Below, piece by piece: positions 14,569-59,232 of a stretch of 60,133 bases of DNA. Under the pieces are notes generated by a model. It had not been told where the DNA came from, ran no database searches, and saw nothing but the letters and a program-made list of their open reading frames with translations. Both the position numbers and the translations under genes were made by a program. Where the stretch lies: NCBI GenBank assembly GCA_024278215.1, contig JAJRTR010000064.1, positions 1 through 60,133 of the forward strand, written 5' to 3'. Position 1 is the first letter of the stretch, and every line of letters starts with the position of its first letter. The stretch is from a bacterium (GTDB lineage Bacteria > UBP15 > UBA6099 > JAJRTR01).

Positions 14569-14709
14569 TCCCCGAACCGAATTTTTCATTGGGCATAGCG
14601 TTTGAAGCCAGTGATTTGTGCTATTATATATGTACGTGGGCGCAAGCCGCGGGTCAGGTGTGTCCGCTTGTGTCAATGGAAATACAATTGGCTCCATAAA
14701 GACAAATTT

Positions 14710-23700: not shown

Positions 23701-25350
23701 GACCTCGTAGACTGGACGGACAACGGCGCGAACACTTCTGTCACAAAAACCGGCCTCGCACTCGCCAACGAACAGACGTATTATTTCACGGTAAAGGCGG
23801 AAAACGCCGCCGGTCTGCAATCGACGCCCGTAAACTCGGACGGCCAGCAGGTCGATATACAGGACACGACCGCGCCGACGGATGTCGCATGGGTTTATGA
23901 CGGAACCGGTGCGGACATAGATTATTCGAGTTCGACCGCCATGCTTTCCGCCAACTGGGCGCCCGCCGCCGACTCCGAATCCGGCATCGCGGGCTACTGG
24001 TACTCCATCGGCACGACGTCCGGCGCGAGCGACACCGTAGGCTGGACTTACACCGGGACGAGCGCGACATCATCGTCAATAACCGGTCTCGCACTCGCCG
24101 ATGCGCAGACTTATTACATTTCTATCAAAGCACAGAACGGCGTAGGGCTTGTGTCCGCGGGCACAGGAATGTCGGACGGCGTGACGATCGACACCACGCC
24201 GCCGTCGCAGATCACGAATGTGAACGACGGAGCCGGCGCCGACGTGGAATATTCATCCGAAGAATCAACGCTGTCCGGCAACTGGGACGCGGCGTCCGAT
24301 GCGCAATCGGGCATATCGAGATACATATACGCCATCGGCACAGCAGCAGGCGCGACAGATACTGTCGGATGGACGGACAACGGCACAAATACTTCATTCA
24401 CCAAAACCGGCCTCACCCTCGAGGACGGACAGGTTTATTACATTTCCGTAAAAGCGGAAAACGGACTCGGGCTCGAATCCACTCCCGCAAACTCCGACGG
24501 AGCGATGAAAGATTCGTCGCCCCCGAACGATGTGACGCAGGTAAACGACGGCACCGGCACAGACATCGACACAATAGAATCGACATCCGAACTTTCCGCC
24601 AACTGGTCGGCGGCAACAGACCCCCACAGCGGCATAGCGACTTATTACTATGCGATCGGAACAGGCACGACGATGAATAATATTGTCGATTGGACAGATG
24701 CGGGCGCGACAACTTCCGTCACGGTTTACGGTCTTGGCCTTATGGATGGAGAGACTTATTATTTTTATATCAGGGCGGTAAACAGCGCCGGTCTCGAATC
24801 CGAACCATTCTCCTCCGATGGAGTGACTGTCGACGTGCCGGATACCGGATTCCAACTCGGCACGGGCTGGAACCTGATGGGTATTTCTTTGCAGAATGTT
24901 ACAATAGACCTCGATGAAATGGCGTCCGGCGCGAGCGGAACGGTCGAATTCGAAGTCGCGGCAATCAGCGGCAGCGCTGTGAGCTACATTACGGACCAGT
25001 CGAGTTTCAGCGCTTCCTTCACCGGCGGCTACTGGATATTCAGCGACACGGCGCTCGAATACAGCAGCATCAGCGGCGACACGTACACAGGAGCGAGCTA
25101 CGACATCAGTCTTACCGGCGGCTGGAACACCTTCTCGAACCCCTACGATCAAGCACTCGAGTGGTCGGACACTGGCGCGGCACTCGACTGCGGTGCCCCG
25201 GCATCGTTGCCGCCCATTTACGCCTACGACAACGGTACCGGTTCTTATATTAAGGTCGAACCCGGCTCCGGCACGCGCATCTCACCCTGGAAGGCCTACT
25301 GGATCGAAGTCGATTCTTCCTGCACCCTGACAATAAGCAATCCACAATAA
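14710..25350 (+). CDS. giant secreted M6-family (immune inhibitor A-like) metalloprotease with beta-helix, 14 FN3/Ig-like repeats and 9 four-cysteine repeats
   Basis: Signal peptide ending ..APAFA; HETGHALGLPDYYD (HExxH...D); EYFIVQNR, G.AVWHVD, LMEADG; beta-helix-like segment; repeats; C-terminal GWNL/GWNT repeats. Start uncertain (14710 or 14773). Confidence 0.88.
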   Translation: MNNNADCNNKSCIPRIRLFGCMFYVIAAVSALVFIIAATAAPAFASRPPTPEEIEKYTQDGTLAERVEFMKNLGNYRMDKQLAVRNYYKLKYKYDRMVGNPVPLQAPPPAWKGMPTTGTVKVLILAIEFADYVHNNDKTELETEIFGAGDPADYPYESLTNYYDRASYSQLDIQGNVLGWTAFPANRDTYGTTTADRESMIMSALDYWDGVGHDFTQYDNDGDGKIDYFAVIWAGPNTGWSSFWWSYKTNWNVNPTYTIDGKTLGTYSWNYESKYEEPNPPGDFKPRTLIHETGHALGLPDYYDYDVDTGPDGGVGNFDMMDANHGDHNAFSKFVLDWITPVVYAGGTGSISLRASDSYPDAAIIMPELQSGEQFGEYFIVQNREQNGNDDGIYGQGLAVWHVDARLNTAGTDYEYDNSYTEHKLLRLMEADGLEEIEASDSSSYDAGDFYVAGNEFSSTTVPTNARYDGTSSGFSLYNLSAASTTMTLDYSFDDTPPADIATVSDGTGADIDTVESLDTLSANWSASSDAESGIQKYWYAVGTTAGSADFVDWTDNATATAVTRGGLSLADGQAYFFTVKAQNGAGLYSNATDSDGQTVDVFTVVSVTQVSTTTIDVKYTKEVDSSPTAVDTNNYSVDGGVGNPTGAVAQSTDTIRLTTAEMDPCTPYVLTITGVLSDAGAGLYAGSSPADVDTMNTLISSNVATDTTWTPAGGPYCVTTDINVSSGNTLTIQAGTTVYFKPDVGVDLTVFGEIQVQGTSGSPVVFTSAKATPAAGDYGSIQLSSSSSAGSSISGLHESYAEYGMYVFGVAPNITESEFSNCLQSCVTLDGSNAVVWKNTFSDCGAGTSSCVTTRESSEGYIVGNNFSGGDRGVSVRSSSYIIANDFDAMNTIGLGISAGGGAAIIKENNFRGATYGIYTWADGTDADATHNYFSGNTVDTFADSGCSPACTIDNSYPLTDMIDEFFGVTDLVLKLSASYTVDLPESIAASSTLYIQVDGTDDDTTTINSFLTSVTSDSDPDGIYVELTETGVNTGIYRGTAVLAAASDQSANEIFAVDGDTVTVGVVRDGGATSDSAVVASDLTQPTDIAYVYDGPGADITWASSTSVLSANWAASSDPETGVSAYFVAIGTTAGATDVFNWTSVGTQTSTIVGGLSLAQGQTDYVSVKARNGAGMYSNVATSDGQTVDNTAPGDIASINDGLSADIDYSSSTVSLSANWADAVDAQSGVSTYWIAIGTASGAVNILPWTDTGATATSTTVSGISITHGNTYYFQAAARNGSEMFGNAIVSDGVLIDTTAPTDIATVNDGAGADIAWSTSSTTASANWSDSSDGESGVASYYYAIGSAAGATDVVDWTDNGTATDVTRAGLALSDGTTYYFSVKARNNVSIDTSVTSSDGWTVDTTPPTAVATVNDGPGADVDWGNSTSTISANWSAASDPHSGIARYYYAVGTIAGATDVVGWTDNATATSVTHSGLSLTEGNTYYFAVKAENAAGLVSSAVDSDGQTIDVSAPTAVATVNDGTGADIAWSTATASLSANWSEAADPQSGILAYWYAVGTTAGATDVVDWTDNGAATSVTKSGLALTEGQAYYFAVKAQSGSLAFSSETYSNGQKVDSQPPADVANVNDGTAADIDYATSPTQLSANWSGTTDDGTGVAAYWYAIGTTAGATDVVGWTDIASDTSVTRTGLTLTEAQAYYFTVKAEDGVGFESTPVFSDGQTVDTTFATQSDWSPAKGATITVTTPTITFTTSENAYCRWSDTDQAYADMSGDCTGDGTTSQSCAASALPQGSASVYISCSDMAGNEDTAGTNEEISYFVDSILPAQSGWSPADGETIATTTPLISFTTDETAGCLWSLSDQAYGDMNPANTCSASATVSHSCAVTGLVEGAQNVHIACADTSGNEDSASTNTDLGYTVDITPPDQLSWVPAKSSTLTATSQDIVATTDEQSNCRWALTDLAYGDMAVGNACTGDGTASHTCPATGFDQGFEIVYIACADEHGNEDTIATNEQVNYFVDSLTPVQSNWNPAKGATITTTIPIITFDTDENATCRWYILDAAYGSIPPGNTCDGGGTSAQSCGTGGLSEGAATVYIACIDEAGNADTDSTNQDINYFIDMTPPAQSGWNPADSATIASTTQAISFTTDENGACRWSLTDQAFADIDTGNACAGATSTAHVCTAAGLVEGSEYIFISCTDEYGNADTAGTNDALNYTIDLSPPVQSGWSPATGTYITTSSQTITFTTDENADCHWSLTDQAYADMGGDCAGDGTTGQSCAATGLSSGPEVVYIACADTYGNEDTADTNKELAYTVDTTAPSDIATVYDGDTIGVDIDTTESGVELSANWTASADAESGIAKYWYAVGTTAGATDLVGWTDNGASTSVTKTGLALADGQTYYFTVKAENGVGLQSTPANSDGQTVDILDLTPPADIASVYDGPGPGADIDFASSTTQLSATWSDSTDAESGIAGYWYSIGTTSGASDTVGWTYAATSATSTVVTGLTLADGATYYVSVKALNGVGLLSNVATSDGLTIDATPPADVIVDDGPGTDIDFASSTTQLSANWSASTDAQTGISAYLFAVGTSAGATDTIDWTGNGTDTSAVVTGLTLTEGTTYYFTVKAENGVGVFSTAANSDGVTIDVSPPVQSAWSPADGSTVTTTSPSITFTTDENATCRWSLTDLAYSDMNAGNACSASETTSHTCAVSGLPEGANTIYISCADSIGNEDTTSTNDQLAYTVDTTPPVQSAWSPADGSTIITDAPSITLSTDENATCRWSLTDLAYSDMSAGDDCGGSGITAHTCAASGLAEGENSIYIACADTPGNEDSISTSTQLDYTVDTTPPARSGWSPATGTYITTTSPTITFTTDEAATCRWSLSDLAYGGMSGDCTGDGTTSQSCAATGLSSGPEVVYIACADTPGNEDTAATNDGLAYTVDTTAPSDIATVYDGDTIGVDIDTTESGVELSANWTASTDTESGIAKYWYAVGTTAGGTDLVDWTDNGANTSVTKTGLALANEQTYYFTVKAENAAGLQSTPVNSDGQQVDIQDTTAPTDVAWVYDGTGADIDYSSSTAMLSANWAPAADSESGIAGYWYSIGTTSGASDTVGWTYTGTSATSSSITGLALADAQTYYISIKAQNGVGLVSAGTGMSDGVTIDTTPPSQITNVNDGAGADVEYSSEESTLSGNWDAASDAQSGISRYIYAIGTAAGATDTVGWTDNGTNTSFTKTGLTLEDGQVYYISVKAENGLGLESTPANSDGAMKDSSPPNDVTQVNDGTGTDIDTIESTSELSANWSAATDPHSGIATYYYAIGTGTTMNNIVDWTDAGATTSVTVYGLGLMDGETYYFYIRAVNSAGLESEPFSSDGVTVDVPDTGFQLGTGWNLMGISLQNVTIDLDEMASGASGTVEFEVAAISGSAVSYITDQSSFSASFTGGYWIFSDTALEYSSISGDTYTGASYDISLTGGWNTFSNPYDQALEWSDTGAALDCGAPASLPPIYAYDNGTGSYIKVEPGSGTRISPWKAYWIEVDSSCTLTISNPQ

Positions 25351-41599: not shown

Positions 41600-44500
41600 A
41601 TGTTAAACAGGATAATCATGAGACGAAAACTGAATATCAGGCAACCTGACATAGAGAATGCCTCCGACAGGAAAGTCATAATTCCCAGAGGTAAATTTTA
41701 TTGCATAGCGATAGCGGTGCTCCTGGCTGTGGCAGTGAGCGGCGCGACGGTGTTTGCGAATATCGTGGAATGGGATTCGGTCAACGGCGGCGGCGCCGAT
41801 CTGACAGCCGGCGGCACAAACTATCTGAGCGGCAGCATCGGCCAGCTTGTTGTCGACGCGAGTTCACCCGCCGCAGACGATCTGAAAGACGGCTACCGTA
41901 TAGCGATTCCCGAGGCTGCGGCTATCGAATGTCGAAACGCGGGCGCGGCCTGCACCGGCACATGCTACGGCCCGGCAAATAAAACATTCACGTTTTACAA
42001 TACGATGGGCGGCGGAACTGTGGGGTCGCCGACTGCGTTCAACTCCGGCTCGACGCAATATTATCTGTACCTCTGGCAGACAAACAACACATACAGTTAC
42101 AGCACAATACTGGGAGGCAACGACTGGAGCGACACGGCGGCGCTGTGCGAAGGCGGCGCGTGCGACAAAAGCGGTACATCAATGACAATCGACGCCACGT
42201 CGACAAGCAGCACCTGGTACTTTATAGCGAAGAGCTTCAATGGCGGACAGTGCGCGACAGGCGCGGGTTCGTGTGAAGGGCTGACGACTTACAACACGGT
42301 TGAGATCGGGCCGATCCAGTATGATGAAGACGCCGCGATCGCCGGTTCTCTCGGCGCGGTTACCGTCTCGAACCAGGCTAATGGAACCCATGTGGACGGT
42401 AATGGTTTCGACATCGACATGAGCGGTATTGTTACGACGGGCTGTTCCGCGACGACCGGCTGTCAGTACTGCGTGGCTAATGATGGAAGTTGCGACACCG
42501 AATGGGCAGCGGCAACTTACGCGGCAGGCGCGTGCGACCAGAACACGGTAACCTGCACAGACGGCGATACGGAAACAATAAATATGAGGGCCGTGGACGG
42601 ACTCAGCAACTACACGGCGGGAACAGAGATAACACGAACATGCGACGCCGCGGCGCCGTCCGTCACACAGGTACTGCCGGACTCGGACACATATACAAAT
42701 TCCACAAACATCACGAGCGGCGACGTGACTTGCAGCGACGGTACAGGCGTCGGACTGCACGCAACACCTTATGACGTGCAGTATTGCAAAAGCAATGTGG
42801 CGAAAACAGACTGCGACGACGCGACCGACACATGGAGCGATTCCGGCACAATCGGCTACACAGCCACAGCCAACCAGACGGTCAACAGTGCCGACGATGG
42901 ATACTATTTCTGTTTCAGGGCGAGATGCAGGGATGCGTTCGCTCACGAATCTTCGTGGATGTACTCGATGGACGCGCCGGCAGGTTGCATTTTCATCGAC
43001 AGGCAGGCACCGCCCAACCCGACAGTCTCCGGATATGACGACTCCAACAAAGGCGTAGCACTTGTTTCAGGCAACGGCTATCCATATGACGCGCCCAGCG
43101 GACCATATTTCGAATGGAACGATCCGACAGACGCTCCGGCGTCACCCGCGAACTCGGGAATAAAAGGTTACTATGTGTATTTCGGGACAAACAGCAGTTT
43201 CGACCCGGTTACCTACCAGGCGGCGGCCTCACCCAACACCTTTACAAACTCGACCTCGCTGACAAATGGAACAACTTATTATCTCAGGATAAAAACAGAA
43301 GACAACGCGGGCAATATCTCGACCGCGGCAACATTGTTCACCTATACGTACACGAGCGGCGCATACCTGCGGGCGACGGCGGTAGATGCGGACGCGACCT
43401 CATACGGTGGCGACCTGGGAACAACCGACGGCTCGGCCTCGGCGGCATCGACGACATTGCTCGACGGAGTGCTGAACCCGGACGGCACCGAATTCGAGAT
43501 AGTGCTGGTACAGCTTTACGACGAAGCCGACTCGATGATAACAAACGGAACACTGGCCACAAGCACAGTCCAGATATCGCTGGGTTCCGATGGAACAAGC
43601 CTTGTCGACAGTAGCGCGTATATCGACTCGACGGGCCTGACGGGAGCAGGAGCCACGGGGCCCGGCGTTACATCCGTCACAGGCAACCTGGTTGCCGGTG
43701 AAGGCTGGATCAAGATAAAAGCAACAGCGGCGGCGTCCGAAGCGATTTATGTCGAGGCCGCGCAAGCCGGCACCTCATCCTTCTCCGGAACAGGAGGCCG
43801 CAACCAGCGTGCCTATGTCCTGATACGTGATAAAACCGGATTCGGTGAAGGCATCGACACAGTTACCGACATGATGTCGCCGATAGCGGGCGGAACGGTC
43901 ATGCACCCGGTGTGGAGCCACGGGGGCACAGAGATCGTCGTTGCGGCCAGGACAGCGGCGGCAACAGGCTGGAACCTGTGGTTGATCGACTGGAACGGCA
44001 GCAGCTGGGATGCCGCCATAAGGCTGACCAATAATGGAATGTGTGTGCAGCCGATGGCCAGATATACATTTAACTCGGACGACAGCAAGGTAATATTTAC
44101 CGGCAGGGACGGATGTACGACCTCCGACGCGCCCGAAATGTACGCCGTTAACGCAGATGGTTCAGACAATGCCGATACGCTGGCAACTCTCGACTCGGAA
44201 AACAAACATATTTCAAATAAAACAGGTGGCACACCCTACTACTGGTGGGATGCCGAATGGAATGTCAACGCGGGTCCGTATGCCGACCAGTTGCTCGTTT
44301 CACTGGTAGACTTTTCCAACGTCGACCTGGAACTCTACTTCATGAACGGAGTAAAAACGGGCGGCCTATACCTCGAAGACAGCGTCGGCACAACATTTAC
44401 AAAGGTAACGGATTTCAATAACGCGAATTCATGGTCTTTTCACGGCTCGATGTCGGCCGACGGTACAAAAGTCACATTCGCCGTATGGGACTGGGGCACA

Positions 44501-45823
44501 ACCAGCTCGGATATGTATGTGACAAGCATCTATTCCGTCGATCTCACAGTAGCGACTTTACCGGTAACAGGTGTAGGGCCGGGAGTGGAACTGGTGCAGT
44601 CATGTTCCGCATCCTCATGTCCCAACGGCGCGGGGCTGTTCCCTTCATACACAAACGACGGCACAATGGTATCATATATGACAGATGATCTTACCGGATC
44701 GACCTTCGACATGCGCAACTTGATCAACGCGGGCTCCACGCTCGGCGGCGACATTACAACCGACTTCTTCACCGGTGCCAATTTCGACAATTATGTCGAG
44801 TACCTCGGCGACGGCATATACAGTCCGCAACTTCTTGGACAGAGCGAAAACAATGAGTTCGGACTCGTCCAGTGCCACGGCGCGGGATGCCCGCAGTCGA
44901 CAAACGGAAACCTGTTCGCCTATATAACACTCGACCCGGGCGGGACAACAGACGGGAAGCTTAAATTCCTGGAACTTTCCGACGTAAGCACAGTATCCAG
45001 CAACGGCGGACTGCTCTTCTTCCAAGGCTCTGTCAGTGCGGTTATTCCTCCCGGAGCAGTCCTGAGCGACGAAGTGAAACTGCAAGTTACAGCGCCCGGC
45101 TCGGCACCGAGTTCGCCCGACGGCAAAGACGTGCTCGTCAGCACAGGCGAGGCCCGCGAGTTCTTCCCGGACGGCGTCAAATTCAACAAAGACATCCTGA
45201 TGGTTTTCCATTATTGCGACCAGGACAACGATGGTATGCTCGACACCAATCAGGACGCAAACTGCACAGGAGGCGGGAACTCCGCGATAGACGAAAACGA
45301 TCTTTATGTCTACTTCTGGTGTGAAGACAGCGCACTGGGATGCACACAGGACGCATGGAACAAGCTCGACGGCTCGATCGATCCGACAAACGACACGATC
45401 ACAGTAGCAATAAACCATTTCTCGAAATATGACGTGTGGGCACTGATGAACGGCAGATACGCGCCGGCGGCATTCGTCGAACTCAACCTTGTGGACCTCC
45501 ACACATATCCCAATCCCTGGAGAACAGGTTACGGAAATGTCGAATTTTCTGTCTCCAATTCCAGTACGTACAATGCAGGAAACATCTCAGTCAGTGTGTC
45601 GATATACGACATCAGGGGCAAACTCGTGAGGACAATAAACGAGTTCTGGTCCGGCACCCTGCCGAACAACACCGCCGGAACGGGCCTGATGGTCGCGCAA
45701 TGGGATGTTAGGAACAACGCGGGCAGGCAGGTGGCGTCCGGCATATATCCTTATGTATTAAGGATAAGCGACGGACAGAATTTCAATAAGACATACACCG
45801 GAAAACTGACGGTTGTCAGATAA
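41600..45823 (+). CDS. large secreted multidomain protein (Cys-rich, FN3-like, TolB/PD40-like propeller, ZU5-like) with C-terminal T9SS/FlgD-Ig-like domain
   Basis: Signal-like segment; HPVWSHGG, SMSADG, FPSYTNDG; VIPPGA...PDGVKF...NHFSKY; C-terminus YPNPW..IYDIRGKLVRTI..WD.RN.AG..VASGIY.Y...GKL.VVR. Confidence 0.8.
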   Translation: MLNRIIMRRKLNIRQPDIENASDRKVIIPRGKFYCIAIAVLLAVAVSGATVFANIVEWDSVNGGGADLTAGGTNYLSGSIGQLVVDASSPAADDLKDGYRIAIPEAAAIECRNAGAACTGTCYGPANKTFTFYNTMGGGTVGSPTAFNSGSTQYYLYLWQTNNTYSYSTILGGNDWSDTAALCEGGACDKSGTSMTIDATSTSSTWYFIAKSFNGGQCATGAGSCEGLTTYNTVEIGPIQYDEDAAIAGSLGAVTVSNQANGTHVDGNGFDIDMSGIVTTGCSATTGCQYCVANDGSCDTEWAAATYAAGACDQNTVTCTDGDTETINMRAVDGLSNYTAGTEITRTCDAAAPSVTQVLPDSDTYTNSTNITSGDVTCSDGTGVGLHATPYDVQYCKSNVAKTDCDDATDTWSDSGTIGYTATANQTVNSADDGYYFCFRARCRDAFAHESSWMYSMDAPAGCIFIDRQAPPNPTVSGYDDSNKGVALVSGNGYPYDAPSGPYFEWNDPTDAPASPANSGIKGYYVYFGTNSSFDPVTYQAAASPNTFTNSTSLTNGTTYYLRIKTEDNAGNISTAATLFTYTYTSGAYLRATAVDADATSYGGDLGTTDGSASAASTTLLDGVLNPDGTEFEIVLVQLYDEADSMITNGTLATSTVQISLGSDGTSLVDSSAYIDSTGLTGAGATGPGVTSVTGNLVAGEGWIKIKATAAASEAIYVEAAQAGTSSFSGTGGRNQRAYVLIRDKTGFGEGIDTVTDMMSPIAGGTVMHPVWSHGGTEIVVAARTAAATGWNLWLIDWNGSSWDAAIRLTNNGMCVQPMARYTFNSDDSKVIFTGRDGCTTSDAPEMYAVNADGSDNADTLATLDSENKHISNKTGGTPYYWWDAEWNVNAGPYADQLLVSLVDFSNVDLELYFMNGVKTGGLYLEDSVGTTFTKVTDFNNANSWSFHGSMSADGTKVTFAVWDWGTTSSDMYVTSIYSVDLTVATLPVTGVGPGVELVQSCSASSCPNGAGLFPSYTNDGTMVSYMTDDLTGSTFDMRNLINAGSTLGGDITTDFFTGANFDNYVEYLGDGIYSPQLLGQSENNEFGLVQCHGAGCPQSTNGNLFAYITLDPGGTTDGKLKFLELSDVSTVSSNGGLLFFQGSVSAVIPPGAVLSDEVKLQVTAPGSAPSSPDGKDVLVSTGEAREFFPDGVKFNKDILMVFHYCDQDNDGMLDTNQDANCTGGGNSAIDENDLYVYFWCEDSALGCTQDAWNKLDGSIDPTNDTITVAINHFSKYDVWALMNGRYAPAAFVELNLVDLHTYPNPWRTGYGNVEFSVSNSSTYNAGNISVSVSIYDIRGKLVRTINEFWSGTLPNNTAGTGLMVAQWDVRNNAGRQVASGIYPYVLRISDGQNFNKTYTGKLTVVR

Positions 45824-45947: not shown

Positions 45948-46856
45948 ATGAATGTAAAGAAAACGATTAAAACAGTGTTATTCGCAGCCTTTGCGCTGGC
46001 GATTCTGCCGGTGATAAGTTATGCGACAGGAACAACAGGCGCGACATTTCTCAACGTGGGAGTGAGCGCGCGGTCGGAAGCCATGGGCGGCGCATATTCG
46101 GCAATAGCGGACGACGCCAGTGCCGTCACGATAAACCCCGCTGGAATGGTTCAGGTCAAAAAGAGCCAGGTCTCCGTAATGCACAACGAGTCACTCCTGG
46201 ACATCAACCAGGAATACTTCTCTTACGTGACCAACTGGGGAAATAAAGCATTCGGCACGAATCTTATATATGTGGACTATGGCACACAGATGTTCAAGGA
46301 TGAAAACGATGCCGGCACCAGCACATTCAAACCCAAGAGTTACGCGCTGTCATTCGCATATTCAGCTTATGCGAGCAAAGTGCTTTCCTATGGCGTAGCG
46401 ATCAAATATGTAAAAATGGACATCGGCGTTGACAACTATGAAGACTCGACATTTGCCGTAGACCTCGGCCTGCTCTACAAACCACATCCCAAAGGATGGC
46501 GTATGGGCGCTGTTCTCTCACATCTCGGCGGAGGCCTTACCCTCTACAAAGAAGAAGACCCGCTGCCACTCACATTCAAAATCGCCACCGCCTATGAATG
46601 GGACAATATACCCCTCCTCGCTTCATTCGACTGGTACATGATCAAGGAAGAGAACCCGGAATACCACTTCGGCGCGCAATACACAATCTCCGATATCGTG
46701 CCTGTCAGACTGGGCTATTCCTCGCAGAGCGATCTCGACAACGGCTTCTCTTATGGAATCGGCCTTGTGCAGGACCAATTCGCTCTTGACTATGCGTTTA
46801 TCCCAGCCGGCGAAATGGACGATACACACAGGTTCTCACTATTGTTTAATTTCTGA
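45948..46856 (+). CDS. PorV/PorQ (UPF0164)-family outer-membrane beta-barrel
   Basis: Signal peptide; GATFL.VGV.AR..AMG.AY.A.ADD..A...NPAG, D.G..Y, LP, R.GY, DYA......THRFS....F. Confidence 0.85.
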   Translation: MNVKKTIKTVLFAAFALAILPVISYATGTTGATFLNVGVSARSEAMGGAYSAIADDASAVTINPAGMVQVKKSQVSVMHNESLLDINQEYFSYVTNWGNKAFGTNLIYVDYGTQMFKDENDAGTSTFKPKSYALSFAYSAYASKVLSYGVAIKYVKMDIGVDNYEDSTFAVDLGLLYKPHPKGWRMGAVLSHLGGGLTLYKEEDPLPLTFKIATAYEWDNIPLLASFDWYMIKEENPEYHFGAQYTISDIVPVRLGYSSQSDLDNGFSYGIGLVQDQFALDYAFIPAGEMDDTHRFSLLFNF

Positions 46857-47571: not shown

Positions 47572-48555
47572 TCAGATCGACTGGCTGAAGTTGAAGAGTT
47601 TGCCTGCAATTTCGCGAAAATCGTCGCTCGCTTCGACAGTGTCCACCCATCGCCTGGGCAGCGACCATGTGCCGTTCCATGCGCCGGAGATGGCGCCTGC
47701 AACCGCGCCGGTTGTGTCTGTGTCGCCGCCGCCCATGACAGCGGAGATAACAGTTTCCTCGAAATTTTCAGGTGTTTTCAGGAAGCAGTAGACGGCGCTT
47801 GCTACTGTCTCGACGACATAGCCGCTTGTGCCGAGTGTCTGGAGTGCCGTGCCGCAGTGCAGATTCTCTTTTAATAATTGTTTCGCGCGTTTGAGATTGT
47901 CGGCGACCTTGCACGGGCCGATGAATTCGATGCAGCGGTCTATCAGCTCTGGTTTCGCTTCGACGAAATCGGGCTGTACGACACCTGTTGCGATAAAGAA
48001 ATTCACTGCCCTGCTGCCGGCAATCGCTTCAGGGTTATTGTGCGTGATGACGGCGTCGTTTTTTGAATCTTCACGGAGGAGATCGAGTTTTTTATGATCG
48101 AGAAGTCCGATGGGGGCGCAGCGCATGGCCGTGCCGTTGCCTGCTGCGTTCTCGCCGGTTTTGCCGCTTTCGCGCCAGTCGGAGCCTGCTTTAAGGCGCA
48201 GAATGGACTCGGCGGTGGCGCCGCCTATACCACGCAGGTCGCCCGAGTCGAACCAGCGCACATACCATTTCGCCGCTTCCCGCGCTGAAAACCTGCCTTC
48301 ATTTCTCTTTATGCTCATGGCGAGATGCAGTGCCATTTTTGTGTCGTCTGTCCACTGGCCCGCCTTCAGGCCGCGCCTTGTATCGGGCAGAAAATCCCTG
48401 ACCCTTCCGCCCAGTTTGCTCATGATCCATGTCGGCCGCCAGCCCTCGAACGGCATTCCAAGCGCGTCGCCTATCGCAAGACCCAGCAGGCATCCCTCGA
48501 ATTTGGAAGAATCCGCTTCCATTCGTCTGAACTCCTCTGAATATTCTTTCAACAT
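47572..48555 (-). CDS. ADP-ribosylglycohydrolase (DraG/ARH family)
   Basis: G.LLGLAIGDALG.P.E, GQWTDDT, GNG.AMR.APIG, TH, GGDTDT.GA.AGAI.GA. Start may be 48522. Confidence 0.92.
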   Translation of the reverse strand: MLKEYSEEFRRMEADSSKFEGCLLGLAIGDALGMPFEGWRPTWIMSKLGGRVRDFLPDTRRGLKAGQWTDDTKMALHLAMSIKRNEGRFSAREAAKWYVRWFDSGDLRGIGGATAESILRLKAGSDWRESGKTGENAAGNGTAMRCAPIGLLDHKKLDLLREDSKNDAVITHNNPEAIAGSRAVNFFIATGVVQPDFVEAKPELIDRCIEFIGPCKVADNLKRAKQLLKENLHCGTALQTLGTSGYVVETVASAVYCFLKTPENFEETVISAVMGGGDTDTTGAVAGAISGAWNGTWSLPRRWVDTVEASDDFREIAGKLFNFSQSI

Positions 48556-51621: not shown

Positions 51622-53640
51622 TTATAGAAATTTAAACTTATGGAGCTTGTGTGTGCTCATTTCAAAGATGTCAAAGCTCCTGTTTCCGTGGGGGATTATT
51701 CTCGACATCGAATGAAAACTACTTCTATACAAATTGTTGTTTTCACATGTATCAAATGTATTGAACACCGAAATCAACTCTCCGGTCAGGGCACTGAATA
51801 TCGCAACCATGTTGTGTCTCTGGTTTTGATCTGTCTTCGATTTCCATTCATCGAGTTTTGTACTAAATAATAAAGATATTATATATTCCGGCGACATTAT
51901 TTCATAATATCCTGCCCAGTATCCTGTTCCAAGACAAGCAAGCGGGAAGGTGCGTAAAACCACATGATCTTCGGAAAACACGATTATTGTCTGATCCGCC
52001 TGAAGAGCATAAAAACATTTCTTCTTGTCATCGTACAAGACATTTATAGGGCTGTCAAAAACCAGAGGATATTGACCGCCTAATAAACCATGACGTCCTG
52101 TATCCATGTCAATGATGAAAATCTTTCCGGTTGAAGGGTCCGGAATCAATAGGTTGTTTTTATATATTCCAGGTATAATGAAAATGTTTAAAGGATTTTC
52201 TTTACGGTTAATTCTCGCGAGTTCGCGTTTCGATGTGCCATCCATATCGTGATAATCTATGATTGTATCTGTTTGTGAAGCACTTGATCTTAGTGATATA
52301 ATGCCATCTTTCAGACATCTGATAAAAAACACCTGACTGTCAAATTTTGATGTAAATTCCTGATATGAATCTCCATAGCCTTTTATTATATCGCCATTGT
52401 TATAGAATACGCCGTAAAATCCACCATCCTCCTGTCTGTCTACCGCATATAGATCGTTGTTGTAAGGTATAATTGTTTCTGAATGTGCCAGTATTCGCAT
52501 TTTTCGCGTTGCAATTGTTCTGATAGAACTTTCGAGTTTGTTTTGCATCGTGAAAAACGTCTTGTGCGTGGAAAAAGTCTGTAGGCATTGTTCTATAACA
52601 GGTTCTACAACTTCGGAGTTTATCTCGACTGCCGCCATGGCACGTTTGAAAATGGTATGTCTGAAGGAACCCGGCATTTTGCTTTTGTATTCCGGAGGCC
52701 ATGCGTCGGGATGAACCGGGCAGCCGGTCGCGACACGGGCTATGAACTGAGCCTCCGTAAGTGGTTTTTGAGAATCGAATGTGTCCCTGTGCGTCATGCC
52801 GGGGCTTTTATCTCGAGCTTCTTTTATGTCGAGTTCAGATATCGAAACAACAGAGAATGAACAGGTTGTAAAATCCGTCATAATCATGTTACAGTCCGGT
52901 CCACGGCTCTCCCGGAATTCGGTACGTGCATTGTCCAATGTGAAACTCTTGAGCAGTTGCCCGTCAAGCCGGTAAAGGCAGGCGCCGGCCTTTTCCGTCG
53001 ACACGAGCAAGCAGCCTCCGCATGCGTAATGCACAGCATGGAATGCTCCTGTTTCGGGTGTCGGCTCAATGATGTTCTCAATGAAAAACAGACTGTCGAG
53101 AATTGCGATTTGCCCACTTGCCGTCTGGACAGCGAGGAACTCGCCTGTTGATATAATATACCCTGGATATTGCAGTTGTGTTCCATGCATCCCGAATGGA
53201 TGAACGACATATTCCAATGTATTTCGATCGTTGAAAATCACAAGGCTCTCATTTTCACGATCCGTAACGATCAGTGAATCATGAAAGAACGCGACGCCGT
53301 ACGGTTCGGTTAAGATTTCCTGTCGCGCTTCATCTTCGCCGAAAGTCTCAAGAAGCTTCAGGTCTGAAGCTCGAAATATCTGTATGCGCCTGTTCCACCT
53401 GTCTGTCACAAAAATACGCCCGTCCGGGCTCACGGCAGCGTCTGTGGGATATATAAATTGCCCGGATGCACTGCCGTATCCTCCGGCTGATGTGATGAAT
53501 TCTCCATCGGAGTCGCATTTAAATATCATATGCGCAGTTTCGTCAACGAGGATAAAACCGCCATCACCATTGGGCCGACATACCGCAGGCAATTTTATTT
53601 CGATATTATCCGGAGTGTTTTCTATATCAATTACTTTCAC
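51622..53640 (-). CDS. NHL-repeat / beta-propeller protein
   Basis: G.YGS..GQF.YPTD.AV..DGRIFVTD..N.RIQIF; visibly AT-richer than neighbouring genes. Confidence 0.75.
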   Translation of the reverse strand: MKVIDIENTPDNIEIKLPAVCRPNGDGGFILVDETAHMIFKCDSDGEFITSAGGYGSASGQFIYPTDAAVSPDGRIFVTDRWNRRIQIFRASDLKLLETFGEDEARQEILTEPYGVAFFHDSLIVTDRENESLVIFNDRNTLEYVVHPFGMHGTQLQYPGYIISTGEFLAVQTASGQIAILDSLFFIENIIEPTPETGAFHAVHYACGGCLLVSTEKAGACLYRLDGQLLKSFTLDNARTEFRESRGPDCNMIMTDFTTCSFSVVSISELDIKEARDKSPGMTHRDTFDSQKPLTEAQFIARVATGCPVHPDAWPPEYKSKMPGSFRHTIFKRAMAAVEINSEVVEPVIEQCLQTFSTHKTFFTMQNKLESSIRTIATRKMRILAHSETIIPYNNDLYAVDRQEDGGFYGVFYNNGDIIKGYGDSYQEFTSKFDSQVFFIRCLKDGIISLRSSASQTDTIIDYHDMDGTSKRELARINRKENPLNIFIIPGIYKNNLLIPDPSTGKIFIIDMDTGRHGLLGGQYPLVFDSPINVLYDDKKKCFYALQADQTIIVFSEDHVVLRTFPLACLGTGYWAGYYEIMSPEYIISLLFSTKLDEWKSKTDQNQRHNMVAIFSALTGELISVFNTFDTCENNNLYRSSFHSMSRIIPHGNRSFDIFEMSTHKLHKFKFL

Positions 53641-53786: not shown

Positions 53787-54149
53787 AACTTTGTGCGTTT
53801 TTGAAACATGTGCAGAATTTCAAGGGGGGACACGAACCGGAATTATAGCATTTATTATTTTGAATTGCATACGTATAGTTACGATTATCATGTACAAGGG
53901 AAAGAACACTTTATTGTCGTATCAACGATGAAAAGACGTAAGAAAATAATTTAGTGGAAGGAACAGAACAAGGGCGCGGTCACCGCAGCGCGCCCCAACT
54001 TTTGGTCGTACAAACAGTTATGCGTAATATATGCACAGGCGCGGTACGGTGACCGCGCCCTCAAAATGTCGATACAAAGTTGACACAACACTATGTTGTT
54101 TCACAATTTCATATAGGAAATTCTGCGCATGTTTCAAAACGCACAAGTT
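53787..54149. mobile_element. ~363-bp MITE-like unit with ~33-35-bp terminal inverted repeats enclosing a REPIN doublet
   Basis: AACTTTGTGCGTTTTTGAAACATGTGCAGAATTTC (53787-53821) vs GAAATTCTGCGCATGTTTCAAAACGCACAAGTT (54117-54149); REPs at 53972-53994 and 54038-54060. Confidence 0.7.
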
Positions 54150-55467
54150 AAATGTGGAAATCGAGTTTGAAGACGCGGATTGTGTCGAAGTGGCTGACAA
54201 TGCGTTCGAGGTAGTTGAAGAGAATGCCCTTTTCCGTGCGGTCGATTGTGGCCTGCTGGAGGGCTTTGTCGATGAGTCCGACTGCGTTGCGGAAGTCTTC
54301 CTCGGTATCGAGACCAAGGTTGCGCAGACCGAGTTTGTCGGTGCTGTAGTCGGGAAAACGGATGGTGACGGAGTCGCCGGGGTCAGGTCCTATGTGTACG
54401 TAGCGATCGTTGGTCGTGTAAATTCTGGCACCTTTTTCGACCATCCTTTTTGTGATGGCGGCGGCGAGTTCTTCGAGAACATCGGGCATGGCGTGTTGCG
54501 CGAAGTTTATGTGCCTGCCGCCTGTGCCCGCGGCAATCTCCTCGTAGACGGGGAACGGCAGTTTTGTGTAGCGGTTGTTGACGCAGAGGGCGAAGAGGGT
54601 GGCGCCGGCATCGTTCAGCGCGGCGATTATTTCGGTGCGCATATTGCCATAGTCGTCGTGTGCTTCGCTGTCTGTGAACATGACGATCATTTTGGCGGCA
54701 TCGGGGCGGAAGGGCTGTTCATCGAGCGCGTTGCGGATGGCGGTCAGAGCGTTTTTTGTCTGGCCGCTGAAGTAGATAGCTTCCAGGTCGTCGGCGAAAT
54801 CGCCGGCGGATTCTCTAAGAGGCCCCGACGGCTGTGAGGTGCGCTCGAACTGCTGGACCCCGAACATCGGGATGATGCCGCGGTCGCGCAGATCGTTATA
54901 CAGCAGATGCGCGTTGTGTGCCAGAATGCGCACGTCTCTTCGCATCCACCTGTTGCGGTCGATGACAAAAATCACATCGGCCCTGTTGTGTTCGTGCGTC
55001 GCGCCGGGGAACGGAGCAATGCGCTTGTAGGAAGTGAGCAGGGGTATCGACCTGTGTTTCGATGTTGCGACAATCTGGTCGATGTTGCTGATGAGCGCTT
55101 CAATTTCTCCCTTTATCGCATTCCTTTCGGCGGGCATGATCTGTAGCAGGTCTATGCCGTAGTGCATCCTGATGAGCAGGTGGATGATGTCGTTGAGCGC
55201 GCCCTCGCGTGTTTTGAACAGGTCGATTTCTTCGTAGACATTCGACAGCACATCTTCCGCCGCGCCGATTTCTTCCCGCAGGCCGTCAAGGTGCGCGCGG
55301 CTTAGCTGCACATGCGTGGGCAGTTTTTCCACCTGATATATAAGCTGCTGTTCGATGTCTTCCGTGCGTTTGCCGCGCGTCTTGCGTTTGACGACTTTGC
55401 GCAGTACATCGGGGTTCAGCATTACCGCCGGGAGCGGGCCGGATGTCTGCCACTGTGATGATTCCAT
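54148..55467 (-). CDS. flagellin-like (D1) protein with inserted vWA domain
   Basis: aa ~62-144 and ~356-427 resemble the flagellin N- and C-terminal D1 helices; centre has DVIFVID...FTD.EAH...IAAGTGG (vWA). Confidence 0.7.
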   Translation of the reverse strand: MESSQWQTSGPLPAVMLNPDVLRKVVKRKTRGKRTEDIEQQLIYQVEKLPTHVQLSRAHLDGLREEIGAAEDVLSNVYEEIDLFKTREGALNDIIHLLIRMHYGIDLLQIMPAERNAIKGEIEALISNIDQIVATSKHRSIPLLTSYKRIAPFPGATHEHNRADVIFVIDRNRWMRRDVRILAHNAHLLYNDLRDRGIIPMFGVQQFERTSQPSGPLRESAGDFADDLEAIYFSGQTKNALTAIRNALDEQPFRPDAAKMIVMFTDSEAHDDYGNMRTEIIAALNDAGATLFALCVNNRYTKLPFPVYEEIAAGTGGRHINFAQHAMPDVLEELAAAITKRMVEKGARIYTTNDRYVHIGPDPGDSVTIRFPDYSTDKLGLRNLGLDTEEDFRNAVGLIDKALQQATIDRTEKGILFNYLERIVSHFDTIRVFKLDFHI

Positions 55468-55501
55468 GAATACATTCTAACTTAAAAATGAGTTTTTAGT
55501 A

Positions 55502-55751: not shown

Positions 55752-56954
55752 TCACAAAGCACTGATATTGGTGATGCCGATGGGGTTGGGCATAAAAGAG
55801 AGGAAGAAAATAATGAGGCAGCAGATGCCGAGCGCATAAGACAACTTTGTCAGGGGTTCGTATTCGTTCATCGTTTTCGGGTAGCCGCGGCGAGTGATGA
55901 AAAAGCCGATAATCGCCCAGATCAGCCAGCCCGGCCAGGCGATGGAAGAGAGTATGCCGCCCGGGTTGCCGGGGCCGCTGTAGAGCATCGAAAACCCCGC
56001 GGCGCCCGCAACGAAAAGCACGGCGATGAGAACTTTATTGATAATCGAGTGTGCCCTGTCGCCAAGTAGCGCCCGCACGATGTGGCCGCCGTCGAGCTGG
56101 CCCATGGGAATCAGGTTGAGACTGGTCACAAACAGTCCCACCCATCCGGCGAACGTGAGAGGGTGCATGTACATCTCCTTGCCGGCAGGCACGTGCACAA
56201 GTATATCCGACAGCGCTTTGAACAGGATTGATTCGCCGAAGAACATTACCGTTCCGTCGCCGCCTGCGGTGAACATGGTTGTCGGAACAACCGGTGAAAG
56301 GTGGAGGCCGATGATGAGTATCGGTATTGTGACAAGAAAACCGATAATCGGCCCGCTCGCGCCCAGCGCCACAGCGGCGTTCCTGTCGGGTGTTGGAGAT
56401 TTTATGCGGATCACCGCCCCCATAGTTCCTATGATCGACGGGAAAGGTATAAAATATGGCGGTGTGGCATCGATACCGTTTTTCATCGAAGTTACTTTGT
56501 GTCCCATCTCATGCGAACCGAGTATCAGCATTATCGCGATGGAAAAACTTAACGCGCCATACCATGGATTCGACATCAGCCCTTTCTGCACCATCGCAAT
56601 TGAATAGCTGTAGCCGGCGGCTGTAGTCGAAAGGAAAGTGACGGCCAGCAGGAGCCATGCGATGACTGCTTCGCGGCGGCTTTCCCTGTCCTTCCTTGTC
56701 CTGGCTTGCAGGAGCACACAAATTTTCCTGCCGCCTCTCTGCTTCAGGTAGGGGTTGTAACCCAGCGACTGGAACTCGTGCGCGATAGTCTGGAAATCGC
56801 TTTTCATTCTTGTGTATGCGAAGCGGATTGTGTTTCCGGAAATAGTGAAACCCTCGACATCGAAGTACTCGTCGATAAGTCGGCGAACCATGAAGTAGCG
56901 TTCTATGTCCGGGGCCGGCACCCCGGCTGTTGTGTTTGTATACCTGTCGTCCAT
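55752..56954 (-). CDS. site-2 protease (peptidase M50)
   Basis: HEMGH, PYFIP...GTMGA.I, GP..G, HP..FAGWVG...T.LNLIP.GQLDGGH. Confidence 0.92.
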   Translation of the reverse strand: MDDRYTNTTAGVPAPDIERYFMVRRLIDEYFDVEGFTISGNTIRFAYTRMKSDFQTIAHEFQSLGYNPYLKQRGGRKICVLLQARTRKDRESRREAVIAWLLLAVTFLSTTAAGYSYSIAMVQKGLMSNPWYGALSFSIAIMLILGSHEMGHKVTSMKNGIDATPPYFIPFPSIIGTMGAVIRIKSPTPDRNAAVALGASGPIIGFLVTIPILIIGLHLSPVVPTTMFTAGGDGTVMFFGESILFKALSDILVHVPAGKEMYMHPLTFAGWVGLFVTSLNLIPMGQLDGGHIVRALLGDRAHSIINKVLIAVLFVAGAAGFSMLYSGPGNPGGILSSIAWPGWLIWAIIGFFITRRGYPKTMNEYEPLTKLSYALGICCLIIFFLSFMPNPIGITNISAL

Positions 56955-57058: not shown

Positions 57059-58864
57059 TCAGTTGTGCCCATACATTTCTTCGATCAGGTCTTTGTATTT
57101 CTCGAATACGATTTTCTTTTTCACTTTCAGCGTTGGTGTCAGTTCGCCCGAGTCGACTGTGAACTCGTGGTCGATAATCCTGAAATCTTTTATCGTTTCA
57201 TAATGGGGTATCGTCTTGTTCTTTTCCTCGACAGCTTTCCTTATTGTTTCTACGACGAGAGGATGCCGGGCCGTCGGCCGGCTGGCTTCGCTCCGGAGTT
57301 TGTGTTCATCCGCGAATGTCTCAAGTTCCTCACTGTTGACTGTAAACAGGGCCGTGAGGTACTTTTTGCCATCGCCGGTGATGACCGCCTGGCTGACAAG
57401 CGGGATCGAAGTGAAAAGATGTTCCAGTTTCTGCGGCGTAATATTCTTGCCTCCGGCGGTGATAAGAAGGTCCTTCTTGCGGCCCGTGACTTTCAGGTAG
57501 CCTTCCGCGTCGAACTCGCCTGTGTCGCCCGAAAGAAACCAGCCGTCCCGGAAGGCGGCCGCTGTCGCATCGGGATTTTTGAGGTATCCTTTGAAGACGT
57601 TCGGTCCCTTGATCATGATCTCGCCGTCGTCGGCGATCTCGACATCGCAATGCGGCATGAGTTTGCCGACTCTGCCGATACGTATCTCATCGGGCGGAAT
57701 GACGACGGCAGGTGCGCTGGTTTCCGTAAGCCCGTATGCCTGAATCATCGGCATGCCCGCGGCGCAGAAAAACGACTGCACTTGCTCGGACATCGGCGCG
57801 CCGCCTGAGCCGACCCACCGTATCCTGCCGCCGGCGACCGCCCTGATTTTTTCGAACACCAGGATGTCCGCGAGTTTCTTTTTCAGCGCGAGTCCCGCAG
57901 GCACGGGCTTTTTTCGACATTCGAGTTCGAAATGTTCTCGGCCCACATCGAGCGCCCAGGCGAATATTTTCTTTTTCAGCGGCGGCTCGTCCTTGATCTT
58001 CGCCTGCACTTTTTCGTAGATTTTTTCATATACGCGCGGGACGCCGATAAGTGTTGTCGGTCTGACTTCGGGCAGGTTTTCCGCCAGCGAATATACGCTC
58101 TCGGCGAAATTCACCACGCCGCCGACATTCAACGACATGTAGAAAACCATCCGCTCGAGCGCGTGCGCAAGGGGCAGGAAAGAGAGTGATTCGTCGTCGT
58201 CGTTGACTATGTTCATCTCGCCCGCGACATCACTGACATAGAGGGCGTTGCCGTGTGTGAGCATCGCGCCCTTGGGCGGTCCGGTCGTGCCGCTCGTGTA
58301 GATATACGTCAGCAAGTGTTCCGGGGCCAGCGCGTCGAGCCGTTGTCTGCGTTCGGCAACAATATCTTCACTCGCCTCTTCGCCCATTTTCAGAAAATCG
58401 TCGAAGCCCATCACCTTTTCGTGCGGTGCGACGCCTTCCATGTCGTAAACGATAATGTTTCTTATCTTCGGCAGCCTGTCGAGTCGCGCGAGCACCTTAT
58501 CGAGTTGTTTTTTGTTTTCGGCGAAAACCATCGGCACCTCGGCATGATCGAGCACATAGGCGACATCGTCGGGCGGCGAGGTCGGATATGCGGCGGTTGT
58601 CACGCTGCCCGCGGATATGATGCCGAGATCGGTGAATATCCATTCGACGCGGCTCTCGCTCAGGATGCCGACCGCCTCCGAGTCATTCACGCCGAGCTTT
58701 ATCAGAGCGCGGGCCGCCGCCTCTGTTTTTGTTTCCAGTTCTTTCCATGTGACAGGGACCCATTTGCCGCCGGCCTTGTGGCGCAGGAAGGTCCTGTCGC
58801 CGTATTTCTCAACCTTGTCGAGAAACATGTGATAAATACTTTTATACTTATGCCGATATGCCAT
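57059..58864 (-). CDS. long-chain fatty acid--CoA ligase (AMP-dependent)
   Basis: YTSGTTG.PKG.MLTH.N, FLPLAH.LER, GVPRVYEKI, YGLTET, GY.KNP.AT, GD.G, GRKKD, GGKNI.P, ELTPTLK.K. Confidence 0.93.
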   Translation of the reverse strand: MAYRHKYKSIYHMFLDKVEKYGDRTFLRHKAGGKWVPVTWKELETKTEAAARALIKLGVNDSEAVGILSESRVEWIFTDLGIISAGSVTTAAYPTSPPDDVAYVLDHAEVPMVFAENKKQLDKVLARLDRLPKIRNIIVYDMEGVAPHEKVMGFDDFLKMGEEASEDIVAERRQRLDALAPEHLLTYIYTSGTTGPPKGAMLTHGNALYVSDVAGEMNIVNDDDESLSFLPLAHALERMVFYMSLNVGGVVNFAESVYSLAENLPEVRPTTLIGVPRVYEKIYEKVQAKIKDEPPLKKKIFAWALDVGREHFELECRKKPVPAGLALKKKLADILVFEKIRAVAGGRIRWVGSGGAPMSEQVQSFFCAAGMPMIQAYGLTETSAPAVVIPPDEIRIGRVGKLMPHCDVEIADDGEIMIKGPNVFKGYLKNPDATAAAFRDGWFLSGDTGEFDAEGYLKVTGRKKDLLITAGGKNITPQKLEHLFTSIPLVSQAVITGDGKKYLTALFTVNSEELETFADEHKLRSEASRPTARHPLVVETIRKAVEEKNKTIPHYETIKDFRIIDHEFTVDSGELTPTLKVKKKIVFEKYKDLIEEMYGHN

Positions 58865-59232
58865 GCTGTCACCTTTCTGACGGTTATAAAGGTTGCGGCT
58901 GATAAACAAGGCGGAAAACTTTTAATATGCTGCCGATATGCCGTGTGTCGCCGGTTGCCGCCGTATGAAAAATGTATGGCTGAAACTTATATCTGGAAAT
59001 TATACCGCTTAAGGCAATATGTGTATAGATGGGTTTGTAAAAGGTATTGTCGTGTCAACAAAGAAAAAAATGTATCTGTCCGCAGGTAACTGTTCGCAAC
59101 GGTACATCAGAAATTCCTGGAATGCAACGACTGTGTCGTTGCAACGGTGAAGAAGTCGCATTTCGCAAAAACTGGCGTTTTTGTATTCCAAACTTTTCCG
59201 ATAGCGCTGATAAGGCGCAAAAATAGAGATTA

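Follow-up and report, generated by a model that had tools for sequence, protein, structure and literature searches.

A contig of 60,133 nucleotides (JAJRTR010000064.1, positions 1 to 60,133; hereafter the window, meaning the whole stretch of DNA that was analysed) from a UBP15 bacterium (assembly GCA_024278215.1) carries on its minus strand an open reading frame (ORF) at 54148..55467. Its 439-aa product joins segments resembling the D1 domain of flagellin to a von Willebrand factor A (vWA) domain and lacks the D0 ends of flagellins; we refer to it as the D0-less protein (P0001). An earlier sequence-only reading had described it as an orphan, repurposed flagellin scaffold with a vWA insert and no D0 ends. 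The gene, its parts and its putative promoter, with the evidence that delimits each and the confidence of the structural model given as predicted local distance difference test (pLDDT) values, are as follows.

54148..55467, minus strand: the whole ORF, D0-less flagellin derivative P0001, 439 aa plus the stop codon (54148-54150), conserved over its full length in 17 family sequences.
55300..55467, minus strand: residues 1-56, remodelled N-terminal segment (family alignments; hhalign alignment begins at residue 61; model pLDDT 51-72).
55063..55299, minus strand: residues 57-135, helices ND1a and ND1b of flagellin D1 (PDB flagellin profile, hhalign, model, VIA).
54433..54990, minus strand: residues 160-345, vWA (integrin I-domain-like) fold at the site of the flagellin outer domains (Pfam, Foldseek, VIA).
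54946..54960, minus strand: residues 170-174, DRNRW (D170-R171-N172-R173-W174), degenerate position of the metal-ion-dependent adhesion site (MIDAS) (alignment against full-length vWA-flagellins).
54178..54423, minus strand: residues 349-430, D1 beta-hairpin and long CD1 helix (PDB searches, hhalign, model, VIA).
54151..54177, minus strand: residues 431-439, short conserved tail R-x-[FY]-x-L-D-F-x-x replacing the C-terminal D0 helix (alignments, 15 of 15 clade rows).
55474..55479, minus strand: TAGAAT, a -10-like hexamer 6 nt before the ATG, putative leaderless-mRNA promoter (same spacing at 6 of 9 orthologous loci).

A Pfam scan of the protein returned VWA only (residues 164-302, 28.2 bits against a cut-off of 23.8), and neither Flagellin_N (PF00669) nor Flagellin_C (PF00700) was matched even at E<=10. 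The flagellin matches in NCBIfam were weak and all far under cut-off, with flagellinolysin at residues 351-411 (E 1.8e-5) and Hag at 63-231 (E 1.9e-4); the flagellinolysin match (NF033876) scored 24.4 bits against a cut-off of 205 and covered profile positions 324-382, the C-terminal D1 part, and the HExxH metallopeptidase motif is absent from the sequence. A single-sequence search of the PDB produced 13 matches at E<=1, of which 11 were flagellins, aligned over residues 63-144 and 355-430 to the N- and C-terminal parts of D1 (D1N and D1C), and a profile of four family sequences (the query and three relatives from a 90%-cluster database) retrieved flagellin 5gy2_C at E 5.9e-10 through residues 75-144 and 352-425, with integrin I-domains ranking below the flagellins in the same list. 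Judged by these comparisons, the flagellin likeness of the segments on both sides of the vWA domain, which had been proposed from the letters by eye, far exceeds chance.

An exhaustive search of representative sequences retrieved 152 proteins at E<=0.001, 10 of them at E<=1e-30, and two tiers of relatives can be told apart. In the close tier (P0005-P0013) the proteins are 420-439 aa long, apart from two fragments, and neither flagellin end domain (Flagellin_N, Flagellin_C) was found by Pfam in any of the seven that were scanned. Members of the second tier are proteins of about 470-520 aa that align in a single stretch to query residues ~60 to ~425, and 19 of the 21 scanned have Flagellin_N, Flagellin_C and a VWA-family match together, the last above the VWA cut-off in 17 and below it in P0028 and P0029. 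The two others are P0039, which has no VWA match, and P0014, in which VWA is accompanied by no more than the distal part of Flagellin_N. When an alignment of 17 family sequences was compared by hhalign with one of 37 full-length vWA-flagellins, the probability was 100% and the E-value 1.6e-50 over 359 aligned columns, pairing query residues 61-427 with template 50-418 and reaching neither terminus. The two nearest clusters in the ESM Atlas (score 0.93) are likewise Flagellin_N/Flagellin_C/VWA families, with 125 and 151 members. These clusters are mostly from Bacillota.

The D0-less protein and the full-length vWA-insert flagellins (for example, a paralogue on contig C88 of the same genome) share the collinear order D1N-vWA-D1C and the same insertion point, between ND1b and the D1 hairpin. 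By sequence comparison, the ORF is homologous to flagellin across this whole D1N-vWA-D1C span. The full-length proteins have D0 at both ends, the N-terminal one with the pattern MxINxN...LSSGxRIN...DDAAG and the C-terminal one 55-75 residues long, and in 39 of 40 cases they have the MIDAS, whereas the clade of D0-less proteins has none of these. We regard the D0-less protein as a derivative of vWA-insert flagellins and do not class it as a flagellin itself, because it fails the two defining flagellin features (both D0 ends) and the MIDAS of a canonical vWA domain. Thus the vWA insert of the sequence-only reading is real, whereas its acquisition by the D0-less protein itself is not borne out: it was inherited from full-length Flagellin_N+VWA+Flagellin_C flagellins.

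What has been lost was counted in a 56-row alignment containing 15 rows of the query's clade and 40 full-length relatives. After query position 427, all 15 clade rows have 12 residues, against 55-75 (median 56) in the 40 full-length rows, and the clade tail R-x-[FY]-x-L-D-F-x-x stands where flagellins have the SRIxDxDxAxE...LLxLL helix, which would run about 45 residues longer. The segment before residue 61 has a median length of 58 residues in the clade and 49 in flagellins, about that of ND0 plus the spoke, and in all 15 clade rows it lacks the LSSGxRIN and DDAAG stretches. In their place is a clade-specific motif, PLPxxxxNPxxIxxVVRKR, with a basic patch from R23 to R34 that accounts for the basic N-terminus remarked on in the sequence-only reading. 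None of the 15 clade rows matches the MIDAS motif D-x-[ST]-x-[ST], compared with 39 of 40 full-length vWA-flagellins, and the motif is intact in P0014 as well; at this position the clade has DRNRW (the query, at residues 170-174, just as had been noticed), DRDAR, PRTRR, SRSTS and other sequences. As far as alignment can tell, neither D0 end is detectable in any of the 15 clade members, in agreement with the earlier proposal of a repurposed scaffold whose D1 homology flanks a vWA domain. Taken together, these comparisons show a remodelled N-terminal D0 region, the loss of the C-terminal D0 helix and a scrambled MIDAS, with the D1 helical bundle and the vWA fold retained. Flagellin descent with loss of both D0 ends is well supported.

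An AlphaFold2 model built from the 56-row alignment (pLDDT 86.8, predicted template-modelling score 0.81) has helices at residues 57-108 and 112-135, a vWA alpha/beta core, strands at 349-370 and a helix at 389-430. In the wide structural search by VIA its top match was the D1 domain of Bacillus subtilis flagellin (5gy2_D), with Z 19.8 and a root-mean-square deviation of 1.9 A over 161 of 169 residues spanning model residues 65-429, followed by further flagellins (4nx9_A, Z 18.8; 3v47_D, Z 18.5). Integrin beta-I and I-domains match model residues 150-349 with Z 17-19 in Foldseek and VIA. Foldseek against the PDB returned vWA-type matches only, and the D1 likeness surfaced in the wide VIA search. 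The protein has the Rossmann-like vWA fold, and in the model ND1a, ND1b, the beta-hairpin and the CD1 helix are predicted to pack as a D1 bundle, the point that the sequence-only reading had proposed to check.

We then asked how widely the gene is distributed. The phylum was sampled through 13 species genomes, all from one order, and 11 of them carry a D0-less gene without internal stops, one copy being cut by a contig end; the two genomes without it are 83% and 89% complete. A sample of 48 genomes from elsewhere in the domain gave at most partial flagellin- or vWA-type matches. In three congeneric pairs the ratio of non-synonymous to synonymous substitution rates (dN/dS) was 0.111, 0.115 and 0.111 (dS 0.19-0.43), and close relatives keep both the length of 420-439 aa and matching start and end motifs. 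These data show that the D0-less gene, single-copy and stand-alone, is maintained by purifying selection across a small phylum.

They also bear on the possibility that the ORF is a flagellin pseudogene in decay or an error of annotation, such as a truncated copy or a frame on the wrong strand. A flagellin that Pfam fails to recognise, overlapped by an antisense ORF, could be taken for either; we nevertheless consider this very improbable, given intact orthologues with the same termini in 11 of 13 phylum genomes, the dN/dS of about 0.11, and the fact that both the homology and the confident fold fall on the minus-strand frame. The decayed copy that the sequence-only reading had held out as its own refutation therefore fails. 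The antisense ORF in question, of 268 aa at 54031..54837 (plus strand), has comparable counterparts in two orthologous loci and is most likely a by-product of composition and no gene.

For the ancestry of the clade we built a quick tree on the shared D1N-vWA-D1C columns, including 38 full-length vWA-flagellin rows and with Shimodaira-Hasegawa-like approximate likelihood ratio test (SH-aLRT) values as the only supports. In it the 15 D0-less rows group together as a single clade (SH-aLRT 99) whose sister is P0014 (99), and every full-length vWA-flagellin falls outside. This shows that the D0-less protein descends from flagellins in which a vWA domain stands in place of the outer domains. Because D0 is common to all flagellins, the simplest history is that D0 was lost once and the MIDAS afterwards. 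P0014 itself is a 499-aa protein from a 1.9-kb contig; it has a short C-terminal tail and a longer vWA domain, lacks the LSSG motif and has its MIDAS intact (DKSGS), and no relative of it other than itself was found in the 90%-cluster database; it may represent an intermediate stage of D0 loss. The query and its clade are a D0-less, MIDAS-less offshoot of the vWA-flagellins restricted to one small phylum.

The surroundings of the gene are not flagellar. Its neighbours in the window are an M50 peptidase (55752-56954, minus strand), an NHL-repeat protein (51622-53640, minus strand) and an acyl-CoA-ligase-type enzyme (57059-58909, minus strand), and none of the 40 window ORFs scanned matched a flagellar Pfam family, as had been stated from the sequence. 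Around eight orthologues no neighbour recurs beyond one genus, with the exception of an ADP-ribosylglycohydrolase, and in none of the loci examined does the D0-less gene adjoin flagellar genes. In the window (47572-48555, minus strand) and in two loci of genus g4 (L026:5185-6126 and L028:5145-6086, 65% identity), the ADP-ribosylglycohydrolase gene is found no more than a few kb from the D0-less gene; no other neighbour recurs even loosely, and this recurrence may be a coincidence.

The genome as a whole is a different matter, and the label of orphan fits the position of the gene and not the genome, which is richly flagellar. The search of the genome that the sequence-only reading had recommended found 15 Flagellin_N (PF00669) matches, the window ORF not among them, along with FliS, FlhA, CsrA and two FliW copies, all outside the window. 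A locus with FlgL, FliW, CsrA and flagellin lies on contig C51 (L031, G000:C51:8285-11641), and the second FliW is isolated (L032, G000:C139:1-2270). The full-length vWA-flagellin on contig C88 (L011:662-2212, plus strand) begins MKINTN..., has DDTAS at the MIDAS position and ends in a classical C-terminal D0. The number of Flagellin_N matches is unusually high (for example, C22:56017-56364 and C142:47137-47550), and some sit in open frames of about 900 aa that could encode giant flagellins or hook-associated proteins. FliW is present in all 13 phylum genomes, with a second copy in three (the window genome, G006 and G008), and its copy number shows no co-occurrence signal with the D0-less gene among them.

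The 284-nt gap upstream of the gene was inspected for promoter motifs. A sigma-28 pattern had no match in the whole window, and a sigma-54 pattern had 43 window matches against 58 expected by chance, none of them in the upstream gap; neither a sigma-28-like nor a sigma-54-like motif was seen in nine orthologue upstream regions. What recurs instead is the hexamer TA[GA]AAT exactly 6 nt 5' of the ATG, with no Shine-Dalgarno sequence, at 6 of 9 orthologous loci from four genera (including L024-L028). A -10 element 6 nt before the ATG is typical of leaderless mRNA from a sigma-70-type promoter, and the motif suggests that the D0-less gene has a sigma-70-type promoter of its own and is transcribed without a leader. 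Among canonical flagellin genes of the same genome, one is preceded by TAAAGTCT-N11-GACGATAT, and for several the leader is long, with a GGA-rich ribosome site that, read by eye, looks to be of the CsrA type.

A non-flagellar neighbourhood and a promoter of its own raise the possibility that the protein is an intracellular vWA scaffold with no connection to flagella, whose D1 bundle is no more than an ancestral remnant, a stable helical stalk. The clade-specific conserved residues along D1N, which differ from the flagellin consensus, would also fit. However, all carriers are flagellated, FliW being present in 13 of 13 genomes, which leaves no way of showing independence from flagella, and the D1 surfaces are as strongly conserved in the clade as the vWA core, which suggests that D1 is itself functional. 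We regard such a scaffold as unlikely.

Our favoured reading, to which we assign a probability of roughly 55%, is that the D0-less protein is a non-polymerising, probably intracellular, flagellin-derived binding protein. D0 forms the filament core, its C-terminal part is the segment wrapped by FliS, and a protein missing both ends would be unable to polymerise; once that segment is gone it would probably also cease to be a normal flagellar export substrate. Because the C-terminal D0 is missing, we infer from the sequence that the D0-less protein does not polymerise and is not delivered by FliS, while its D1 surfaces could still be presented. It would most likely remain in the cell as a soluble protein-binding adaptor, making its contacts through the D1 bundle and the vWA face. 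The evidence for such an intracellular adaptor or decoy is threefold: no Sec-type hydrophobic N-terminus is seen when the sequence is read by eye, the MIDAS has been lost as in intracellular vWA proteins, and the promoter is of a non-flagellar type. Among the VIA fold matches are MIDAS-less intracellular vWA proteins, namely a subunit of TFIIH and subunits of the proteasome, in which vWA serves as a metal-independent module for protein-protein interaction. The fold is shared at Z 16.5-18.4 with the TFIIH subunit (4wfq), the proteasome (8amz_W and 3jco_W) and the Pactolus I-domain (2iue); these are eukaryotic, lack a flagellin D1 bundle and have 10-15% identity, so that the likeness is at the level of the fold only.

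Alternatively, the protein could still act outside the cell, exported by the type III route through its flexible N-terminus and serving as a secreted monomer, as an accessory of the filament surface or tip, or as a vWA adhesin. Its N-terminal segment is about as long as ND0 plus the spoke and is modelled as loosely structured (pLDDT 51-72), it retains D1, which makes the lateral contacts of the filament, its genome, with about 15 Flagellin_N matches, is rich in flagellar genes, and in the parent family the vWA domain is displayed on the filament surface. Extracellular vWA adhesins, however, normally need the MIDAS for ligand binding, and it is lost in 15 of 15 clade rows; the conserved LSSGxRIN/DDAAG stretch has been replaced; and the gene has no sigma-28-like motif upstream at 9 of 9 loci and never adjoins flagellar genes in the loci examined. 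Missing from all 15 clade rows, too, is the C-terminal D0 that FliS wraps for delivery to FlhA (PMC6070490). An extracellular role is accordingly doubtful in our view, and the functions of adhesin and minor filament component, both on the list of the sequence-only reading, are less likely, because the MIDAS and the FliS-binding end are lost and no sigma-28 motif is present.

For an intracellular binding protein, the likeliest partner would be one that recognises flagellin D1, such as FliW, the C-terminal domain of FlhA or flagellin itself, and by binding it the D0-less protein could act as a modulator or decoy in flagellin homeostasis. FliS wraps the C-terminal D0 of flagellin and also touches D1C, and FliW docks onto flagellin at the N-terminal portion of D1N and at a region of D1C (PMC6070490). 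A complex prediction pairing the family alignment with the FliW of the genome gave no verdict, with scores of 0.00 and 0.00, and counts neither way. CsrA acts on flagellin mRNAs at the 5' leader, and a leaderless transcript would offer it none. One may therefore picture a phylum-wide exaptation of a filament subunit as a cytoplasmic, non-exportable flagellin mimic, made from a leaderless mRNA and competing with flagellins for a D1-recognising factor so as to set the level of, or the choice among, the flagellin genes. We put this forward as a speculative scheme with the odds well against it; if true, it would be the first described flagellin-derived intracellular decoy. Both the localisation and the binding partner of the D0-less protein are what we infer from the features above.

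Several observations weigh against an intracellular, D1-presenting binding protein. The D1N stretch that B. subtilis FliW recognises is where the family diverges most from flagellin, which weakens the idea of a FliW decoy. The N-terminal 56 residues, of about the length of ND0 plus the spoke and modelled with low confidence, may hold a residual type III export signal. The TA[GA]AAT element is missing at 3 of 9 loci, and the leaderless promoter is itself read from a motif. With respect to structure, the alignment behind the confident model held 40 genuine flagellins, so that its D1 packing is partly borrowed and is no independent test of the clade sequences; a model from four family sequences alone was poor (pLDDT 57.9, and <50 for residues 1-91, 350-376 and 406-439). 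Finally, FliW is found in every phylum genome, which leaves no non-flagellated member for a test of co-loss.

Among known systems, flagellinolysin FliA(H) of Clostridium haemolyticum is likewise a flagellin with a functional domain inserted in its hypervariable region (PMC5595980). The insert of flagellinolysin is an HExxH metallopeptidase, and the protein has both D0 ends and assembles into filaments (PMC5595980), whereas the D0-less protein has a vWA domain, no HExxH and no D0. A second parallel is HP1076 of Helicobacter pylori, which PMC7248283 presents as lineage-restricted and non-polymerising, with a structure that its authors call flagellin-like, and as working beside the flagellar system and not in the filament. 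Compared by description, HP1076 is a small helical FliS binder that occupies the site of the flagellin C-terminal region and has no vWA domain, while the D0-less protein lacks the FliS-binding D0 (PMC7248283). The four-sequence family profile also matches PDB entries 2zbi, 3k8v and 3k8w at E ~1e-4. These are the flagellin homologues p5/p6 of Sphingomonas sp. A1, flagellin-family proteins that are reportedly put to a use other than propulsion, the binding of alginate at the cell surface. Unlike the D0-less protein, they are otherwise complete flagellins with D0 ends, and they carry no vWA insert.

Full-text literature searches found no paper that describes or names either vWA-insert flagellins or a D0-less flagellin family, and the suggestion of an undescribed family made in the sequence-only reading is upheld as probable. 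Neither 'VWA' nor 'von Willebrand' occurs in the main text of PMC5595980, PMC11532411 or PMC7018530 or in one supplement of PMC5595980; vWA may already be listed among flagellin inserts in the domain tables of PMC5595980 (Supplementary Table 1, with 61 domain families) or PMC11532411. Few bacterial proteins have been studied as thoroughly as flagellin, whose D0 ends are regarded as invariant and as the part that defines it. A family kept by selection, with D1 and its insert retained and D0 discarded, would be a clear case of a repurposed filament subunit, and a natural D0-less flagellin would let D1 be studied alone, in partner recognition and in homeostasis. Also emerging from the analysis is a sizeable family of full-length flagellins in which a MIDAS-bearing vWA domain is exposed on the surface of the filament; no name for this family was found in the flagellin-diversity papers searched.

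Two other parts of the window are worth recording. Positions 14602-25350 (plus strand) form a single ORF of 3582 aa, with fibronectin type III and Ig-like matches only near its C-terminus, which is probably a giant surface protein. Further along, a 1407-aa ORF without a Pfam match (41600-45823, plus strand) is followed by a PorV/UPF0164-like outer-membrane beta-barrel protein (45948-46856, plus strand), and the two could be a cargo-and-shuttle pair.

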